Of a stretch of 64,000 nucleotides of DNA, positions 2,666 through 49,940 are shown piece by piece (within the stretch, counting starts at the first letter, position 1; each line of letters starts with the position of its first letter). The position numbers and the translations under genes were made by a program. A model generated the notes under the pieces. It searched no databases. It worked only from the letters and a program-made list of their open reading frames with translations, and was not told the DNA's origin. The stretch lies in the IMG/VR virus record IMGVR_UViG_3300013830_000007, positions 1 through 64,000 of that record; one strand, written 5' to 3'. This stretch comes from a virus (Duplodnaviria; Caudoviricetes).

Positions 2666-5266
2666 TTACCAGGCTCTGCTTATAGCTAATGCATAGATAT
2701 AACTTGTTTTACATACAACTGTGATAGTATCGCTAGTAATATCTGTGACAGCAGCACCAGGAGCAACATCTGCATTTTCAAAATTAGACTCTGTTCCATA
2801 GTATTTGATAGATACCTGAATATCGGTTGATAAGAACGGATTAGGTACTGTATAAGTAGTATCATTAGTAGCTACCTGCATATTGTTAATAGGTACTACA
2901 CAAAATCTGCCTAAACAGGTATTGACAGGTGTCCATCCGTTATCTCCGTAAACAGCACTTCCTATACAAGTCTCAGATACTTCTTTGTTACCTTTATACA
3001 TCTTATTCTCTGGAATAGAATAAAATCTTTCAGATAAGAAATAAGCAAGATTGTATAAGGATACCACTCCATCGTTTCTATCAGTTTCAACAGTTAAGAT
3101 TAATTTCCTGACTCTGATAGGCTGATCAAAATCAGCATGATAAACGATATCGTCATCTTCAACAGAATAGAAAGGATAGTATACATCTACCGAATCGTAT
3201 ACTACACTTACTTCGTTACCAGTTTCATCTATACCGCTAACTGTCAATGTCCATGACTTAGGTACATAATCAGCATCCTCCTTCTTCCAGAACAGTGTAT
3301 AACCCATTAACAGTACATCGTCAGATTTAATCGTCTGTTCAATAACTGCTCTGTTAACACCTGCTCTGGAATACCAGCTATCTGTTCCGTTGTAGATATA
3401 AGTTAATGGAGTATCAGGATTACTTGCACCATCAATAAGGCTTAATGTACCATATACATCTGAAGTATATGCTTCAGATGTATTATCACTACCAGGATTA
3501 CTCAGATTGGATTGGAATTTATCTGAGAAAATATCTATACCTTTTCTGATGTTACCATACTCAGGAGGATAATAAGAAGTAGTGAAATATGGAGTCGAAT
3601 TTAATTCAGCTTTAGCAAATATATAGCAAGGTAACTTAGTCGCTGTTACCGGAAGTGCTGCAACTTTCCTGAAAGTATCCACAGCTGGATAAGTTACTAT
3701 TCTGTTAGCTCCATTAGTAGGTACACATACGCCAAATGATTCTTTGGTAAGAAGAATATTTGAAATAGAAGTATCAGATAAAGTTAAACTAATTTTAATC
3801 TCAAGATCAGCAGTTGCATCTAACAGAATAAATGCAATACTGTCTACTTCTATTGGATCGGGGAAAGTAATTGAACAGGTATTGGTTTCATCTATACTCT
3901 GATAATTAGTAGGATTAGTTACTCTGTGAATAAATGTTGTATTACCTGAGAATACTTTCCAATCAGTTAACTTACCATTTTTGCATTTAACTGTATACGA
4001 ACTTATAGTTCTCTTGGCATGGAACTGCATTCTGAAAGTAGCAGAACTTTGAATATCTGTTTTATTTATCTTAGCATAAGTATTATCTAAAGCAAATAAC
4101 TTAGGTGCTTCATTAACCAATGAACCTTTATTGGTAGTTATAACTCCATTAACCATATCAAACGAAGAATTATTCGCCGGATTGATTAACGAAGGAAGTA
4201 TAACTGTTATAGGCGGAGTTAATCCAGACTGACTTAACCTTGAAGGTAATAATCCCATAGGTGCATCAGTGATGATAGCAGGAGGGATGGTTACCATATT
4301 AGCTAACTGCTTGGTCATAGCGTCATTGACTAAGGTTTCGGATTCATCCTTAGTCAGATAGTTATCATGAGTATGATCAACTTTAGCATAATCAGATAAC
4401 TTAGACTTGATAATAGTATCCGCTTCAGTCTGGGAAATATATTCTGAATGGGTGTGATCAGCTTTAGCAGCTCCTATAAGGTCAGGAGTAATATTGTGCG
4501 GATTAACTGCAATCTCATGAGCATTTAACTCTGCCAAATATCTGGTAGTCTGAGCTTCTACTTCATTAGTAAGTTTATCTCTATCATGTAAGTAATCATC
4601 TTTCTTAACGAACGAAGCTGAATCAATACTTATCTGAGCTTTGGTTTTAGCACCAATATATTCATTTAATCTATCTGTTACATAATAGACAGATAATCTG
4701 TCAATTACGATAGATTCATTCTTATTGACATCGACACCTACAAATGAAATCGTATCAGTACTAATATCATCTATAGTAAAAGATACAGTAGTCTGTCCTA
4801 CTTCTCTGAAAGTAGCTACCCATTCGTTATTCTTTCTTAATTCAGCATATCCAGAAGGTATCTCACTGAAATTTGTTGTGATGAGATATGTACCGGGCTG
4901 AGCAAATGCTTTAGGATTAATAGTTAAAGAATTATCTGGTTCATTGCCTATACATTTAGCGCTATTGTCGGCAAATTCCCAATTCTTTAAAATAAAATCA
5001 TCAGGTACATTAAAATAACTGTCAACCTGAGATAACGAAATAGTTGCCAGATCCTGAAATAAGTCACCATCAGGATCTATGGATTTAAGAGCTATCTTGA
5101 TATCAAGGAGAGCTGACTCAAGCATCTCTTTATTGATAAGAGCTTTTCTGTCAGCAGTCTCATAATCTTCAGCAATTTTAGTTAATTTGGTTCCACCTAA
5201 AATAAGTTCGTCACATACTACTTTAGGTGTAACAACTTGCTGTGCTGTTAAAGTACTATTGTTCAT
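2666..5266 (-). CDS. Putative virion tail/baseplate-associated protein
   Basis: 866 aa. Contains the tail-fibre-type motif AHEIAVNPHNITPDLIGAAKADHTHSEY, a second DHTH repeat, and beta-rich C-terminal segments resembling carbohydrate-binding (discoidin-like) domains. Confidence 0.55.
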   Translation of the reverse strand: MNNSTLTAQQVVTPKVVCDELILGGTKLTKIAEDYETADRKALINKEMLESALLDIKIALKSIDPDGDLFQDLATISLSQVDSYFNVPDDFILKNWEFADNSAKCIGNEPDNSLTINPKAFAQPGTYLITTNFSEIPSGYAELRKNNEWVATFREVGQTTVSFTIDDISTDTISFVGVDVNKNESIVIDRLSVYYVTDRLNEYIGAKTKAQISIDSASFVKKDDYLHDRDKLTNEVEAQTTRYLAELNAHEIAVNPHNITPDLIGAAKADHTHSEYISQTEADTIIKSKLSDYAKVDHTHDNYLTKDESETLVNDAMTKQLANMVTIPPAIITDAPMGLLPSRLSQSGLTPPITVILPSLINPANNSSFDMVNGVITTNKGSLVNEAPKLFALDNTYAKINKTDIQSSATFRMQFHAKRTISSYTVKCKNGKLTDWKVFSGNTTFIHRVTNPTNYQSIDETNTCSITFPDPIEVDSIAFILLDATADLEIKISLTLSDTSISNILLTKESFGVCVPTNGANRIVTYPAVDTFRKVAALPVTATKLPCYIFAKAELNSTPYFTTSYYPPEYGNIRKGIDIFSDKFQSNLSNPGSDNTSEAYTSDVYGTLSLIDGASNPDTPLTYIYNGTDSWYSRAGVNRAVIEQTIKSDDVLLMGYTLFWKKEDADYVPKSWTLTVSGIDETGNEVSVVYDSVDVYYPFYSVEDDDIVYHADFDQPIRVRKLILTVETDRNDGVVSLYNLAYFLSERFYSIPENKMYKGNKEVSETCIGSAVYGDNGWTPVNTCLGRFCVVPINNMQVATNDTTYTVPNPFLSTDIQVSIKYYGTESNFENADVAPGAAVTDITSDTITVVCKTSYIYALAISRAW

Positions 5267-33856: not shown

Positions 33857-34390
33857 TTATGCATTAGGAAGAACAGTCTTCAATATCTCAGTATTACCTA
33901 CGTGACGATCGTCAGGCAGAAACACATTCAGCATTCGTTTAAACAATGACGTTTTATTAGATATCTTAAAGATAAACCTGGTTAAATCCGCTGAGATAAC
34001 TACCTTAGATTTCTCATAGATGTATACGCCATGATTATACTCAATCTGCACCTTGGCATACGAACATGGCGTTTTAACAAATTTATCTTTCTCAAACATC
34101 TTACGCAGGATTTTCAACGAATTAGCTTCGTTAACACCCTGCTTGGTTACACTATTATCAATCCTGAACTTCTCTTCTAAATCAGTTGAGATTTTAGTCA
34201 AGAAATTCTTATTCTGTGCATCATACGTAACGATTAATGAATAGTCGTCAATTGAATTACCTACCAAATCCAGTAACAGAAAAGGAAGTTTCCTACAGAG
34301 ACTTCCAATACTTGCTGTCCCATTATCAAAGTACTTCTTCATTACTTCGATATCTCTCTTGGTTGCGGTTGCTGCGTTTGTAATGTTCAT
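33857..34390 (-). CDS. Hypothetical protein
   Basis: 177-aa ORF whose 5' end is duplicated upstream. Confidence 0.6.
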   Translation of the reverse strand: MNITNAATATKRDIEVMKKYFDNGTASIGSLCRKLPFLLLDLVGNSIDDYSLIVTYDAQNKNFLTKISTDLEEKFRIDNSVTKQGVNEANSLKILRKMFEKDKFVKTPCSYAKVQIEYNHGVYIYEKSKVVISADLTRFIFKISNKTSLFKRMLNVFLPDDRHVGNTEILKTVLPNA

Positions 34391-34584
34391 AATTACAGCT
34401 CCAATGTAAAATTATCGATGCCCTGCGATTAGAGTACCATACCTCCAATACAGAAAAGGAAGTTTCCTACAGAGACTTCCAATACTTGCTGTCCCATTAT
34501 CAAAGTACTTCTTCATTACTTCGATATCTCTCTTGGTTGCGGTTGTTGTGTTTGTAATGTTCATAATTACAGCTCCAATGTAAA
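34276..34584. repeat. 135-bp direct repeats (34276-34410, 34450-34584) flanking a segment copied from gyrA
   Basis: The two copies differ at 2 positions. Bases 34411-34450 match 35741-35780 at 39 of 40 positions. Confidence 0.9.
34411..34563 (-). pseudogene. Truncated 50-aa chimeric copy of the 33857..34390 gene
   Basis: Reads MNITNTTTATKRDIEVMKKYFDNGTASIGSLCRKLPFL, then YWRYGTLIAGHR* from out-of-frame gyrA-derived sequence. Confidence 0.65.
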
Positions 34585-36852
34585 TAATGTTCTCACCTGA
34601 TCATGTCTCTTAAGTTTTTTACCTAATGCGCTTGCCTTATTTACATCGATCAGATGGTGATCGTCATTATCGTTAAACAGTTTACCTATGTTACATATCT
34701 TTAGATGTTGTATACTAATATTTTTAGTACAATCATCAGGTATATTCAGATAAATGTCTTTCTTATTCATAGGACAAATAGCAAGAACATGCCAGTTATT
34801 ACCAGGAGTCATAATCAGTTTACCTAAGGAATCTTTCTTAAGTATTCTGTCGACTCTGACAATATTAGGTGCGCTTGCAACCATGTGAAATACAATAACA
34901 TTTTCTACCTTATTAGGCAATGCATATACTAAATCAGTACGAGCACCTTTCGAAACATTTTTCCTAACTGTAAAATTAGATACTGTTTCTTCTGTTATTG
35001 TTCCGTTTCTATGAATTGCATAAAACGTTCTTGTTATCGGACAAATAACCCAATCTTTAAATATACCTTCGACCGATTTCTCAACTATTGAAGTCGATTT
35101 ATCTGTCTTATTGATACATAACGTAAGTTCCTCTTTCGTATTCGGATAGCACAATACATCCTGACACCATATCTCACGAGATGGGTTGATCATTGGCTCC
35201 ATACGATTATTCTTAACGATATATCTCCTTGGATACTTCGAATCATAGAAATGTATAAACTTCCTGCAAGACCATTTAGTCTTAAGAAGATTAAGCATAT
35301 CACGTTCATCGAAGAAATTGATTATACCTAAGTTTCCATATTGTACATACCCCTTAAATTCATCAGAATACCTTGTAATTCTGGATGTTTTATACTTTTT
35401 CTTGAGATATGAAACATCATCGATGATCATATCATCAATCCTATCCAACTGCTTCAGATTGTTAGACTGATTTAACTTATTCTGTTCAAGCTTATTGAGT
35501 ATTGCGGTTTTATTAGCTCTGGCTAAAGTAGCTAATGGCTGACCAACAATAATTTCAGCTTGCTTATAAGTTATCTTTTTATCTCTGAAAGCTCTATACA
35601 ATTTCTCAGTAGCTTCTTCAGTAGTACTGCTGCTTCTGATAGTTTGAATAACTTTATCTACTTCATCACAGACTAATAGAATAGCTCTTAACTTAAGTTC
35701 TTCATGAAGCAATTCAGAACGTTTGTAGTTAAGATCACCTATTATCGATGCTCTGCGATTAGAGTACCATACCTCCAATAATTTCAACGGATTAACAGTA
35801 ATAGCTTTACCATCTATCGAATAATTATAGATAGGATGGAAACTACTGGAAAAACATAACTCCGTTTTAATTGCCTCCCATGCTTCAAACGGATTTCTAC
35901 CTGACTTAACTGGAAACAGATATTCAGCTTCATCTGCCGATAACTGATTGGCTGTTGCTATATAACTAAGATAATATTTAGCTTTACTTCTATTCTTATC
36001 AGAACCAGACTTAGTCGCTAAGATATTTCTAAAGTTAGATGTTACCACACCAAAATCAAATTCATACGGTACAGCTTTCAGCGTTATATCGTTTCCCGTA
36101 ATTTCGACACAACCATCCATCTCGATAGGAACTGTATAATCCTCATTAGCATAGGCTTCTTCCAATGCTTCACGATTCTTAATCAGATTTCTTACCGGAA
36201 AAGACGGTATCATATACTTAACGTATTCCTTAGGATGCGGTATGTACAGACGATTGGTTCTACGCATAGTTGCGTAATGAATCACCATATCGCATACATC
36301 TTCAAATTGAATCATAGGGACTTTCGATTTGAATCCGTATCCTATTGTCGTATTGCCTAAAATCAACGCCGTTGGTAATCTGGGAATCAGATGCACTGGC
36401 TCTACGGTAAGAAAATCCTTAGTTGCGGTCATAGGCAATGTACGACTATTCACGCCTTTCAAAAAGACGTCAGTGGCAAAGTCACTGTTTATAGCCTTAA
36501 GATAACGTGAACCCGCAGCACTGCCCGGATCGTAATATTCTCCATTCTTACCATCAATACGTACGAGCGGATTTCCTACTTTAAAATCCTGCGACATACG
36601 TATTGTAGCATCTTCAATAGAGGACTCACCACCAGTATGAGCTTCTCCTACGACTCCTAATAACTTCGTCAGTCCAGCGGGTCTTTCAAGCTTTCTACAG
36701 AACCAAACAATTCTCCGTTGTATCGCCTTAAGTCCATCAATAATATTGGGGAACTTATCGGCAATCACTGAAGATCCATAAGTAATAGAATCTTCTATAA
36801 GTTCCTGAGTACTGTTCTTATTCTTAGTGGTGATGAGATCCTCTTCCTTCAT
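34567..36852 (-). CDS. gyrA: Type IIA topoisomerase subunit A (GyrA/ParC-like)
   Basis: DGLKAIQRRIVW, HTGGESSIEDATIRMSQDF and catalytic AAGSRYL. The C-terminal domain has no clear GyrA-box, so GyrA versus ParC is unresolved. Confidence 0.85.
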   Translation of the reverse strand: MKEEDLITTKNKNSTQELIEDSITYGSSVIADKFPNIIDGLKAIQRRIVWFCRKLERPAGLTKLLGVVGEAHTGGESSIEDATIRMSQDFKVGNPLVRIDGKNGEYYDPGSAAGSRYLKAINSDFATDVFLKGVNSRTLPMTATKDFLTVEPVHLIPRLPTALILGNTTIGYGFKSKVPMIQFEDVCDMVIHYATMRRTNRLYIPHPKEYVKYMIPSFPVRNLIKNREALEEAYANEDYTVPIEMDGCVEITGNDITLKAVPYEFDFGVVTSNFRNILATKSGSDKNRSKAKYYLSYIATANQLSADEAEYLFPVKSGRNPFEAWEAIKTELCFSSSFHPIYNYSIDGKAITVNPLKLLEVWYSNRRASIIGDLNYKRSELLHEELKLRAILLVCDEVDKVIQTIRSSSTTEEATEKLYRAFRDKKITYKQAEIIVGQPLATLARANKTAILNKLEQNKLNQSNNLKQLDRIDDMIIDDVSYLKKKYKTSRITRYSDEFKGYVQYGNLGIINFFDERDMLNLLKTKWSCRKFIHFYDSKYPRRYIVKNNRMEPMINPSREIWCQDVLCYPNTKEELTLCINKTDKSTSIVEKSVEGIFKDWVICPITRTFYAIHRNGTITEETVSNFTVRKNVSKGARTDLVYALPNKVENVIVFHMVASAPNIVRVDRILKKDSLGKLIMTPGNNWHVLAICPMNKKDIYLNIPDDCTKNISIQHLKICNIGKLFNDNDDHHLIDVNKASALGKKLKRHDQVRTLFTLEL

Positions 36853-43977: not shown

Positions 43978-44685
43978 ATGGCAACCGGGGAACAGAACAA
44001 ATTAAATGCTATTAAAGGTATAGCCAGATTGGTTAGCTGTTCTGCTGAAGAAAAAACTAATTTAGCTAATGAAACTATACCTAAAAATGTTGTTGTCAAA
44101 GTAGACGACGAAAATGACGTATATATAGGAGATGGAGTTTCTTCATTATCAATCTTATCTCCGTTTAAACCGTCTACTGCTGGCAACGCAGATAGCGCAA
44201 ACGAATTCACTGAAAATCAGACCATTGAATTAAGAGGAGATATAGCAGGAACTGCTTCTTCTAAAGCTGGTTGGACTATAGATGCTGCTCTTAATGAAAC
44301 TGGTGTAACTGCTGGTACCTATGGGCTTGATAAAGATACAGTTGGAAATAATAACACTATTATAAATATACCGCAGATAACAGTAAATGAAAAAGGGTTA
44401 GTCACTCTTATAACCACGCATACACTTCAAACAGTTAACACTACAACAGATCCATATGAAGTATCTGCTGATGAAGCTATTGAAGGTGTATCCGTTCAAG
44501 CCGGAGTTATATCTGCTGCTACATTAGAAAGCAAAATTAATAATTCTTTTACCAAATATGAAGCATCTTCAGACGATATAAACAATTTATTTATTGACAA
44601 TTCAGATATAACATCTGAGACTGATGCTTCTGACACTTCCGATACTACTGAAACTTCTGATACCACTACTGATACTACCGAATAA
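43978..44685 (+). CDS. Tail-fibre-associated protein
   Basis: YIGDGVSSLS motif and the GVTAGTYG...IPQITVNEKGLVT repeat typical of phage fibre proteins; acidic C-terminus. Confidence 0.55.
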   Translation: MATGEQNKLNAIKGIARLVSCSAEEKTNLANETIPKNVVVKVDDENDVYIGDGVSSLSILSPFKPSTAGNADSANEFTENQTIELRGDIAGTASSKAGWTIDAALNETGVTAGTYGLDKDTVGNNNTIINIPQITVNEKGLVTLITTHTLQTVNTTTDPYEVSADEAIEGVSVQAGVISAATLESKINNSFTKYEASSDDINNLFIDNSDITSETDASDTSDTTETSDTTTDTTE

Positions 44686-44768
44686 ATTTCTTATTGAATA
44701 GCTTATTTAATGAAACTATGAAATGATAGCTACGACTATCTTTTATCAACTAACATGAGGACTCAAAT

Positions 44769-45347
44769 ATGTCTGTAGTTACTAATAAGCTTATTGACCT
44801 CGGGCGCCTCTCTAAGTTCAAGGAGCTCATGGATGGTTCCGTTGACTCCAAGCTTGCTGCACTTAAGGTCAAAATTTCTCAGATTGTTTCTTCTGTTCCT
44901 ACTGTAGACACTGCTGAGGAAGGTGTTCTTTACTGGGTTCCTGCCAAGGGTGATGGCGAGTATGAGATCTGGGCGAAGGAGAACGTTGACGGTACTCCTA
45001 CCATGGTCAGGAACTCTTCCATCTCCATCAGCGGTGATCTTGACGGACTTCTTACCAAGGATGAGGCTAAGGCTACTTACTTTAACGGAGTAACTGTTGC
45101 TGATGCTACTGTAACTCTGTCCCGTCCGGATGGTTCTTCTGTACCTGTTACCGTTGATAATGTTGCCAATGCTGGTAAGGCTACTAACGATGGTAACGGC
45201 AACAGCATCGTTGATACCTATGAGACTAAGGCTGATGCCAAGGCTCATGCTGATGCTGCTGAGGCTACTTATCAGAAAGCAGATGACATTACTCTTGCAG
45301 AGGATTCTGATATTACTGCGCTCTTTGCTACTTCTACACAGTCTTAA
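44769..45347 (+). CDS. Putative abundant virion/tail protein
   Basis: Capsid-like codon bias. N-terminus MSVVTNKLIDLGRLSKFK is similar to the next two ORFs, and it carries a YETKADA repeat unit. Confidence 0.6.
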   Translation: MSVVTNKLIDLGRLSKFKELMDGSVDSKLAALKVKISQIVSSVPTVDTAEEGVLYWVPAKGDGEYEIWAKENVDGTPTMVRNSSISISGDLDGLLTKDEAKATYFNGVTVADATVTLSRPDGSSVPVTVDNVANAGKATNDGNGNSIVDTYETKADAKAHADAAEATYQKADDITLAEDSDITALFATSTQS

Positions 45348-45369
45348 TTAAAATCATTGGACAATAACT

Positions 45370-45684
45370 ATGGCAGTTAAAGCGACTAAGCTTATCAACA
45401 TTGATCGTCTTAAGACTTTCAAGGATAAACTTGATGAAGCTCATAGTTCACTTATAAATACCAGAATAACTAACGATCAGACCAATCGCATCAGTAGCAT
45501 AACTGTCGATAGTACTACAAAGTTGCCAAGTGCTGCATCTATGGTTACTGGTAACCTGTATTATGTAGCTGATGGCACTACGGTTACGTTATATTTCAAA
45601 GATAGTGAAGGCAACGTATATCAAAATGCTTCAGCTGCTGTTGAAGAGGCTACTGTTGATGATATTAATAATCTGTTCAGTTAG
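45370..45684 (+). CDS. Small tail-module protein, paralogous termini to neighbours
   Basis: N-terminus KLINIDRLKTFK. The C-terminus ATVDDINNLFS resembles ASSDDINNLF and AEDSDITALF in upstream ORFs. Confidence 0.6.
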   Translation: MAVKATKLINIDRLKTFKDKLDEAHSSLINTRITNDQTNRISSITVDSTTKLPSAASMVTGNLYYVADGTTVTLYFKDSEGNVYQNASAAVEEATVDDINNLFS

Positions 45685-45760
45685 TTAATATCTTATATAA
45701 AATAAGGGTAGGATAATATGAATCCTACTCTTATTTGTTTTTATTTTGAGGATTTTACTT

Positions 45761-47206
45761 ATGAGTGGAATTATCACAATTGACCTACTTAGAGATTTCT
45801 TAACTAATCTTAAAGGATTATTTGTAACCAAGACAGATGCTGAAAGCACTTATGAAACTAAGGCAAACGCAGCTAATATCTATGAAACTAAGGCAAACGC
45901 AGCTAATATCTATGAAACAAAGGAAGATGCGGCTACTCACTTAACCAAGACTGAAGCAAGTAAAACTTACATTACTAAAGCCAGTGCAGTCAGTCTGATT
46001 TTAGCTGGAAGCAATGCAGCTACACATCTGACTAAGACTGAAGCAGCTGATACTTATGTCACTAGAAACGAGTTAGGAATGTATGACTATTCCATCATTA
46101 TTGATTTTAGTTTAAGCGATCCAGCTTCTATGATCACTTATACTGATGACGTCGATATAGCTCCTATGGATACACGATGGTTCGATGTATTAGGGCTTAA
46201 ACTCTGTGTGCTCAAGAATGGTGTAGTTCAGTATTATCTTAATCCCAATGATGTTACTAAGAAATTAGATGGCAGTGCTGCTGATATTACCACACTTGGT
46301 AATGATGTCATGCTTGAAATACCTAGAATGGGAACCAACTGTTTATGGCTGGATAGTAACCGTCTTAAAATCACTATTACCACTGCTCCTAACAGAACCG
46401 GATACGACTATCGTGCATTCAGTCTTCATAAATACAACGACTGTGATAAAATTTATATAGGAAGATATCACGCCTGCTTAGACAATAACAGACTGTATAG
46501 CAGCAGCGGTAAAACTCCTATGGTATCGCAGACTCTAGCACAGCACCGTACCTATGCTACTAACCGCGGTGTTGGATATACTAATATCGGTATCTGCGAC
46601 GATATACTGCTGCAGTGCTTATATCTGCTTATTGTAAGAAACTTCAACTCGCAGAGTGCAGTTGGCAGAGGTATTTGCGATCACGCAAATACGCGCAACA
46701 CTACTGGCGGAGCTAATACCTTCGGTTGGCTTAATACTGGTTCTCCCAGAAAAAACGACGGATTTAATACGGCTGTTTGCTGTTTAGGTATCGAGAATTT
46801 CTGGGGCAATATTTATGTATGGGAAGATGGTATAATCCGCAACAGTAATCGTCAGTTTTTCATGGCTCAATACGCTGATCAGTATAATTCAGATGCTACA
46901 GGATATGAATATATAGCTCAAGCCAGTCCTACTGAATCTGGATATCAAGGCAGGTGTGCTGGCATACCTAAATTCATCTTCATGCCTGATGCATCTATTG
47001 TCGCTGCTTCCGGTCGTGGTGAATCAACCTATATGTGCGACTATCAATGGATTGACGAATCTCGTACGGTCATTGCTGTTTTTGGTGGCCACTGGTACCT
47101 TCGTTCGAAGGTTGGTGCTTTCTGCCGTAGTTTGTGCTATCCGGTTTCGGATGCTGAGACCTATGTTGGTTCGCGCCTGTGTTTTAAAAAAATAGCTGAG
47201 AATTGA
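45761..47206 (+). CDS. Tail fibre / receptor-binding protein with C-terminal C-type-lectin-fold DGR-type variable region
   Basis: Start moved to ATG at 45761 (GAGG RBS). N-terminal 10-aa YETK repeats; C-terminus AVFGGHWYLRSKVGAFCRSLCYPVSDAETYVGSRLCF has the GGxW...G.F...GxRL pattern of DGR targets. Confidence 0.8.
   Translation: MSGIITIDLLRDFLTNLKGLFVTKTDAESTYETKANAANIYETKANAANIYETKEDAATHLTKTEASKTYITKASAVSLILAGSNAATHLTKTEAADTYVTRNELGMYDYSIIIDFSLSDPASMITYTDDVDIAPMDTRWFDVLGLKLCVLKNGVVQYYLNPNDVTKKLDGSAADITTLGNDVMLEIPRMGTNCLWLDSNRLKITITTAPNRTGYDYRAFSLHKYNDCDKIYIGRYHACLDNNRLYSSSGKTPMVSQTLAQHRTYATNRGVGYTNIGICDDILLQCLYLLIVRNFNSQSAVGRGICDHANTRNTTGGANTFGWLNTGSPRKNDGFNTAVCCLGIENFWGNIYVWEDGIIRNSNRQFFMAQYADQYNSDATGYEYIAQASPTESGYQGRCAGIPKFIFMPDASIVAASGRGESTYMCDYQWIDESRTVIAVFGGHWYLRSKVGAFCRSLCYPVSDAETYVGSRLCFKKIAEN
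45851..45918 (+). repeat. 30-bp tandem repeat encoding YETKANAANI
   Basis: tatgaaactaaggcaaacgcagctaatatc occurs twice exactly, plus a partial third copy. Confidence 0.9.
47070..47190 (+). mobile_element. DGR variable region (VR); template repeat not found in window
   Basis: Only 10 A in 105 nt over codons 47081-47185. Variable codons (CAC, TAC, CTT, CGT, TGC, TAT, GAT, ACC) are derivable from AAC/AAT. A hairpin follows. Confidence 0.7.
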
Positions 47207-47271
47207 TGGATGAAAATGCTTTTGGGGTCTGGGGCCCCAAAAGTGTCCTTACATTTTCATTCTCAATTCTC
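47198..47271. other. Hairpin/cruciform downstream of VR
   Basis: Core cttttggggtc-tgg-ggccccaaaag (47219-47243) nested in tgaaaatg/cattttca and gagaattga/tcaattctc arms. Confidence 0.75.
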
Positions 47272-47278
47272 GCCGTGA

Positions 47279-47476
47279 AACGAATATAAATACAGCAGCT
47301 GTCTTACTGAATTGGACATGGGCAGAATAGCTGCAATGAAAGGTTGGCTATCTAATAGTACTGAGCAACTATTTATGAATCAATTACAGCTCATCAAATT
47401 GATTAACTATATCAAATACAACTTACATGGAGATTTTACCGAATATGATAGACAATGGGAAAATACAATGTTCTGA
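47279..47476 (+). pseudogene. Possible C-terminal stump of a DGR reverse transcriptase
   Basis: An open frame after an in-frame stop reads ...LTELDMGRIAAMKGWLSNSTEQLFMNQLQLIKLINYIK..., resembling the xxGWLxH thumb end of DGR RTs. It overlaps the next gene's start. Confidence 0.45.
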
Positions 47477-48947: not shown

Positions 48948-49336
48948 CCTCTTTTATCTCCTAAATCATAAAAGTCAGTAAAATACTGCCTAATAGCCTT
49001 AGGCAACGGTTCATCGTCAAACTCTAAGATATGTTCATGTATTGTCTCCTGTCCATAAAAAGCATCATCTGCTTCATCGATAACTGACCAATAATCAACG
49101 AACGCTTTAAGTGATGATTCAACAGTGTCCTGATCATAGTCTTGCTTAACTGATTTCTCAATCCATATTTCAGTTGCCAGTCTAAGTGCAAGCATTCGTT
49201 CGAGAGCGGTATTTGTTATTAAGCAAATCCATACTCCGTCTTTCTTGACTTTATAATACTCGTAATGCATCTGATCAGAATGAATAGCAACAGTAACATG
49301 ACTATGTTTATTAAGTTCCTCCTTAATTTTCCGCAT
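48944..49336 (-). CDS. Hypothetical protein
   Basis: 130 aa with an AGGAGG RBS. Confidence 0.6.
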   Translation of the reverse strand: MRKIKEELNKHSHVTVAIHSDQMHYEYYKVKKDGVWICLITNTALERMLALRLATEIWIEKSVKQDYDQDTVESSLKAFVDYWSVIDEADDAFYGQETIHEHILEFDDEPLPKAIRQYFTDFYDLGDKRG

Positions 49337-49338
49337 AT

Positions 49339-49940
49339 AACCTCCTAAAAATCCAGCACAAATATTTCACGTGCTGGATCACTTCAAATAAGATTAATTA
49401 AACTCAGATTATTTCACTTGCGATCCAAAACCGTAATGATCTGGTTCATATTTTCCTTCAGCCACATCTTCGAGAACTCCAAACATTTTCAGTACACGTT
49501 CCTGAAGTGCCTCTGTATGAAAACTCAAGTTGAATCTTAACTCGTGATCAGAACCATCCGGAGTTATGATAATAGCAAACTCTCTAATCTGTTGAGCATT
49601 CTTCGGAGGATACGTTGCAATGACATAACCCATGGTTCTGAGATGCAGATATCCTTCGCCTTTAACCTTCACAACTTCCTTAGTATCCGGATCGATAACC
49701 TCAAGATCAATCTTCCACATCTTAGGATCATCTGGAGTACGAGAATGCGAAGCCAGCAAATACTGTTCACTTTCAGGATGCTCAGCATTAACCTGAATAA
49801 AGTTGCACTTCTCTACTTTGAGACTAAGTAGCGAATAATACTTAGTCTCAGGTACGTCTTCGATTTTATACATATAAAACCTCCTAAAAATCCAGCACGA
49901 ATATTTCACGTGCTGGATCACTTCAAATAAAGTTAATTAA
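49339..49940. repeat. Duplicated 63-bp intergenic cassette (49339-49401, 49878-49940)
   Basis: 3 mismatches. On the minus strand each reads hairpin atccagcac/gtgctggat, T-tract, then AGGAGG. Confidence 0.9.
49409..49873 (-). CDS. Hypothetical protein, member of tandem paralog family
   Basis: Start moved to MYKIED at 49873 (AGGAGG RBS). Similar to 50874..51209. Confidence 0.65.
   Translation of the reverse strand: MYKIEDVPETKYYSLLSLKVEKCNFIQVNAEHPESEQYLLASHSRTPDDPKMWKIDLEVIDPDTKEVVKVKGEGYLHLRTMGYVIATYPPKNAQQIREFAIIITPDGSDHELRFNLSFHTEALQERVLKMFGVLEDVAEGKYEPDHYGFGSQVK

Follow-up and report, generated by a model that had tools for sequence, protein, structure and literature searches.

Could the tip of a tail protein in a very large phage be the work of a diversity-generating retroelement (DGR), and if so, where does the writing machinery reside? 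In a DGR, a reverse transcriptase (RT) copies the RNA of a template repeat (TR) and misreads its adenines, and the resulting cDNA replaces the variable region (VR) of a target gene; codons of the ligand-binding surface are thereby randomised and those of the scaffold are copied faithfully. Phage DGRs retune receptor binding, and no other natural system of prokaryotes or their viruses is known to hypermutate proteins in a targeted way. The candidate target analysed here lies in a window of 64,000 nucleotides at the start of an 88,322-bp IMG/VR contig from an uncultivated phage, which CheckV rates as 34% complete.

The window encodes a major head protein, a large terminase, topoisomerase II, DNA polymerases, and a DnaB-like helicase, and relatives of the tail protein are found on contigs of 232–260 kb; on these grounds the source is a jumbo phage. 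The product of 41477–42907 matches PHROG 2962, 'RNA polymerase beta subunit' (E = 4e-87), of the phiKZ-type split multisubunit kind. A previous reading of the DNA made without database searches (hereafter the sequence-only reading) had called the phage phiKZ-like. The label is loosely right in view of the split RNA polymerase genes, but the capsid protein has no match among GenBank phages (tblastn, E ≤ 1e-5) and no close relative in IMG/VR, so any relationship to phiKZ is distant. The window also contains a 135-nt direct repeat (34276–34584; 99% identity, copies 174 nt apart), with a third copy of 40 nt 1.3 kb away at 35741–35780. These copies lie in or beside the topoisomerase II gene (34567–36852, minus strand).

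The tail protein and its predicted fold

The target gene (45761–47206, plus strand; 481 residues) was taken from the list of open reading frames, has 419 homologues, and matches PHROG 5302, 'tail protein', with E = 1.3e-59; translation could alternatively begin at a TTG at 45746. Its N-terminal shaft (45830–46072) is built from short repeats rich in alanine, threonine, and lysine, including a direct repeat at 45927–45977 and 46014–46064, and the number of repeat copies varies among relatives, as seen from length variation in the alignment. The remainder of the protein (46073–47203) forms the head domain. An AlphaFold (AF2) model of residues 105–481, computed from an alignment of 62 sequences, reached a pLDDT of 93.6 and a pTM of 0.94.

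The best Foldseek match to the head model was TaqVP of Thermus aquaticus (PDB 5vf4; E = 1.7e-12, TM 0.52). Five variants of Mtd from phage BPP-1 (1yu0–1yu4) matched with E values of 2.6e-5 to 2.4e-4, and PvdO, formylglycine-generating enzymes (FGE), and Treponema TvpA came after them. Searches of the tail protein against Pfam and PDB sequence profiles returned nothing relevant, and its likeness to DGR variable proteins is thus visible by fold comparison alone. The head is predicted to adopt a C-type-lectin (CLec) fold of the FGE/Mtd-like kind, specifically the version found in DGR variable proteins; the sequence-only reading had named prediction of this fold as a check on its proposal. TaqVP resembles the window protein in being a DGR variable protein with a CLec fold, although it is the target of a bacterial chromosomal DGR rather than a virion protein and is only 13–14% identical. 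For Mtd, no sequence similarity to the tail protein is detectable by Pfam or PDB sequence search. The product of 45761–47206 is probably a receptor-binding tail protein.

Three small open reading frames upstream of the gene (43978–45684; 235, 192, and 104 residues) share with the tail protein its N-terminal motif, NKLIDL.RL..F, and in one relative (P0008) this N-terminus is fused to the head domain. The shared motif and the fusion suggest a modular exchange of fibre adaptors.

Composition, limits, and diversification of the tip

The putative VR spans 47048–47185 on the plus strand, at the C-terminal end of the gene. Ten adenines occur in the 105 nt of 47075–47179, compared with 29.7% A across the gene, and none of the 42 codons over 47060–47185 ends in A. 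The C-terminus reads FGGHW ... GAF ... GSRL. Both the adenine poverty and this pattern had been pointed out in the sequence-only reading, and both are borne out. Two further claims hold in part. The region was placed correctly, but variable sites extend over 47048–47166 and the VR therefore starts further upstream than claimed. The variable positions had been said to be exactly those derivable from AAC or AAT; most variable codons are indeed NNC or NNT, but 'exactly' is an overstatement, as AAG (K), GAG (E), and TTG (L) in the VR need template codons with A other than AAC or AAT and a few third positions vary too. The A-poor composition is not unique in the genome: runs of 42–49 codons free of third-position A occur in other frames of the 88-kb contig, and one antisense frame likewise drops to 10 A per 105 nt. 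It is therefore the comparisons below that carry the argument.

Two metagenome contigs, L029 and L030, belong to the same species as the window and are 97–100% identical to it in the flanks. In a 60-nt sliding profile, their identity to the window falls to 63–77% over 47047–47166 and returns to 98–100% from 47167 onwards. The VR differences fall on codon positions 1, 2, and 3 in the numbers 17/15/6 (window against L029) and 15/12/3 (window against L030). A second sub-lineage, L033–L036, behaves in the same manner, with differences of 12/11/5 inside the VR and, in an example, 30/18/86 outside it; variable sites at positions 1 and 2 relate to those at position 3 as 47:14 inside the VR and as 122:158 outside (p = 2e-6). 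VR third positions are more conserved than third positions in the rest of the gene, and positions 1 and 2 diverge 3–4 times more.

Adenine content can be examined indirectly with no TR at hand, using only VR sites that never vary. Such sites contain 9.5% and 8.5% A, compared with 28.9% and 32.1% outside the VR (p = 5e-5 and 9e-6), as expected if every template adenine is mutable. Within one cluster of 15 members at 90% identity, several of them on contigs of 257–260 kb, 11 VR columns take 6–10 residue states each and other variable columns take 2–3. Homologues therefore do not keep the same residues at the VR positions and vary there in the manner of a DGR. Judged from these sequence comparisons, diversification of the DGR type, linked to adenine and directed at codon positions 1 and 2, has taken place both within the species and across the wider ~260-kb lineage.

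A second divergent patch occurs at 46501–46780, where identity to the same-species contigs is 75–88% against 97–100% around it. Its differences by codon position are 9/12/22 and 10/8/20. They are mostly at third positions, and the patch is thus one of ordinary divergence or recombination and not of the DGR type.

Downstream of the variable sites, the 3′ end of the gene is invariant (47167–47215, including GGTTCGCGCCTG and the stop codon at 47204–47206). The 37 coding nucleotides at 47167–47203 show no difference among the window, L029, and L030, and the part of the segment beyond the coding sequence is near-identical in an alignment. In a verified DGR on contig L003 (described below), the VR stops at the position homologous to the end of the window VR. 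The segment is a candidate homing boundary that may be IMH-like; an IMH is definable only against a TR.

A GC-cored hairpin of 14 pairs with a 3-nt loop, noted already in the sequence-only reading, was located by a terminator scan at 47216–47246 (plus strand). An extended inverted repeat (47200–47269) encloses it, with a DNA fold of −20.5 kcal/mol and z = −7.2. The hairpin is conserved in L029 and L030, which is of little weight given that the DNA all around it is conserved as well. Its position fits that of the cruciform that Guo et al. (2011) reportedly described in BPP-1; it also scores as a terminator-like site, and may be either a DGR cruciform or a terminator. Further downstream, at 47299–47300, the window lacks 46 nt that are present in both same-species contigs. 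Near-repeats of 9 nt border the missing segment (L029:4252–4297), and within it lies a perfect 24-nt palindrome (CAGCTGGATGC TA GCATCCAGCTG), features suggesting that a hairpin or terminator was deleted through microhomology. A 67-nt intergenic repeat at 49335–49401 and 49874–49940 (94% identity) has a hairpin of its own inside, CCAGCAC...GTGCTGG, and may represent a promoter or terminator unit present twice.

The DGR cassette in distant relatives and the search for it in the jumbo-phage lineage

Distant relatives of the tail protein are accompanied by complete DGRs. On L003, a 4.7-kb IMG/VR contig, the VR (2360–2478) is followed 208 nt downstream by a TR (2568–2686) and then by an RT gene (2830–3942). 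In a 100-nt comparison of this VR with its TR, all 22 mismatches fall at template adenines, and the VR aligns with the tip of the window tail protein. Among 12 further IMG/VR relatives (36–41% identity), 11 have an RT immediately downstream and the contig of the twelfth ends at the gene, which brings the relatives with a confirmed RT to 12. An A-specific TR was present in 17 of 17 distant relatives tested, all small phages or prophages, among them prophages in Lachnospiraceae and Oscillospiraceae genomes; it lies 210–295 nt after the VR. A scan of GTDB genomes recovered only the distant prophage family. Every verified member carries its cassette adjacent to the target. Homologues with an adjacent TR thus exist, with an RT wherever one was searched for, and the tail-protein family is a genuine DGR target family.

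The sequence-only reading had proposed a search for the matching TR. None was found in the contig, in IMG/VR, or in the relatives' loci compared, the contig being 34% complete. Both strands of the 88,322-bp contig were scanned by ungapped identity and then by match-or-A; no TR emerged, and the best non-self score, 72–73 of 96, equals background. A search of short proteins for a TR within a short called open reading frame yielded two gene fragments only. The TRs of the small phages fit the VR scaffold of the window at 73 of 96 positions by match-or-A, with 52 identical, again at background level; a true template would give 96. A metagenome scan and a first IMG/VR scan were also empty, and both used patterns with fixed T or C at third positions that are possibly A in the template. 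L029 and L030 differ, GGT against GGC, at two of these fixed third positions, and the template may therefore carry GGA there. IMG/VR scans with template patterns that allowed N at these third positions again gave no TR. A lineage-generic scaffold pattern retrieved one further VR from IMG/VR (L054/G017) and no TR.

The RT search gave a similar result. The 88,322-bp contig, at 34% completeness, contains no RVT_1 (PF00078) candidate at E ≤ 10, and tblastn with 11 family RTs returned noise alone. Two related IMG/VR contigs, G001 (85 kb) and G017 (43.7 kb, ending in the VR gene), have no RT, and a scaffold-pattern scan of both recovered the VR of G017 itself and nothing in G001. Avd, a DGR accessory protein, is small and divergent. 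Two candidates were rejected: a supposed C-terminal stump of an RT at 47272–47476 scored no higher than shuffle means in Smith–Waterman alignments against the 11 family RTs and had no tblastn match there, and a non-diversified paralogue of the tail protein (see below) does not fit the A rule as a hidden template.

Origin of the diversified tip and its relation to known systems

The CLec-fold tip of the tail protein (~47048–47185) is very probably a VR that has been rewritten by a DGR. The proposal of the sequence-only reading is supported here by the predicted fold, the verified DGR family, the variation of the VR within the species, and the adenine-depleted invariant sites. We consider it very unlikely that the tip became hypervariable through positive selection and recombination only, as in many receptor-binding proteins. 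The failure to find a TR or RT would agree with such an origin, as would the common observation that tail-fibre variability is greatest at receptor-binding tips, but it is at odds with third positions more conserved than those in the rest of the gene next to strongly divergent positions 1 and 2, with a roughly three-fold depletion of A at invariant VR sites, and with a fold and family that are those of verified DGR targets. The patch at 46501–46780 illustrates ordinary divergence in the same gene and has the opposite codon-position pattern.

The variation of the VR among genomes of one species points to a DGR that is at work in the species or was so until very recently. The contig is free of TR and RT for 45 kb upstream and 41 kb downstream of the target, and a remote cassette is therefore the most likely arrangement: situated in the two thirds of the genome that were not sampled, it would act on 45761–47206 as a remote target. 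The cassette itself was not found, so its remoteness is something we infer, and the arrangement would depart from the adjacency seen in all verified family members. For the statement as a whole, a DGR-written tip together with a remote cassette in the unsampled genome, we see a little better than an even chance. A different history, which we regard as possible but doubtful, is that the tip was written by a DGR whose TR/RT cassette was later lost in the strain or species, leaving only ordinary mutation and recombination at work. Such a loss would explain 88 kb free of TR and RT, and a hairpin-bearing stretch of 46 nt shortly after the gene, retained in relatives whose VRs are different, is missing from the window. 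It would also suit L001/G001, which has a non-diversified paralogue only and whose 85 kb contain no RT. Within the protein cluster to which the tail protein belongs, all three members (on contigs of 88, 86, and 64 kb) share one VR although they differ at 8 residues elsewhere, a weak sign of a frozen tip in this strain, but another cluster, which is clearly diversifying, likewise includes two members that share a VR and show 4 differences outside it. Loss is further countered by L029 and L030, whose VRs differ on otherwise 97–100% identical DNA, meaning that diversification was very recent, and by a contig that covers only 34% of the genome. Writing in trans, by a TR and RT on another replicon of the same host (prophage, plasmid, or chromosome), seems improbable. 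Among gut Firmicutes, small temperate phages and prophages do carry DGRs with homologous targets, and the jumbo-lineage DNA examined (the 88-kb contig, G001, and G017) has no cassette; yet homing depends on near-identity with the VR scaffold and 3′ end, which none of the loci compared and nothing in IMG/VR provides, and the small-phage TRs fit that scaffold at background level.

The case for a DGR-written tip with a remote cassette can be set against known systems. The BPP-1 DGR (mtd VR – avd – TR – brt) shares these traits with the present case: the VR forms the C-terminal end of a tail or receptor-binding protein with a CLec fold, randomisation affects codon positions 1 and 2 on a scaffold that stays fixed, and a GC-rich hairpin follows the VR. 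BPP-1 differs in being a 42-kb temperate phage, compared with ~260 kb here, and in having its TR and RT directly downstream of the target, where the window has none within 41–45 kb. The DGRs of small gut and rumen phages and prophages (L003, L006–L017, L046–L051) are closer: their targets are homologous (28–41% identity over the head), with the same VR position and a homologous end residue, and the scaffold motif GG-W...GAF...G-RL is common to both. These systems, however, are compact, with the TR 210–295 nt after the VR and the RT adjoining. They belong to phages of ~35–45 kb or to Lachnospiraceae and Oscillospiraceae prophages, and their TRs mismatch the window scaffold. The remote-target DGRs mentioned by Roux et al. 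(2021; PMC8144416) share with the window a VR that has no cassette beside it, with the difference that the cassette for the window was not found. VRs not adjacent to an RT escape contig-based DGR surveys, according to the same study, in which the word 'jumbo' does not appear.

Iyer et al. (2021; PMC7824862) compared 224 jumbo phages and reported that none had DGR-type (FGS/CLec) domains, and our literature search for a DGR in a jumbo phage found no paper describing one. What the locus presents is a well-known mechanism, a DGR with a CLec target, in an unusual host, a ~260-kb phage, and on this evidence a widespread lineage of uncultivated jumbo phages very probably has a DGR-diversified tail protein. 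We judge it evenly balanced whether ~260-kb phages with phiKZ-type split RNA polymerases run a DGR of their own with the cassette more than 40 kb from its target. If they do, mutagenic retrohoming can bridge long stretches of the genome of a jumbo phage, and the published absence of DGR-type lectin domains in jumbo phages is overturned. A cassette remote in the same genome would offer a test case for how homing finds a distant target and a case for how very large lytic-type phages adjust their host range. Absence of the cassette would instead make the locus a dated example of a stranded VR.

Two further features were observed in the tail-protein genes of relatives. Some carry a tandem paralogue (L029:1135–2460; protein P0056) whose tip is rich in A and shows no diversification; one of these paralogues occurs in identical form on 61 contigs, and the diversified copy is also present in those genomes. 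In the second sub-lineage (L001:2390–2400 and the gene ends of L033–L036 and L054), a run of 7–10 G right before the stop codon toggles the frame between KHVEGGGA-stop and a long read-through tail, a shift that could be a sequencing artefact or phase variation.
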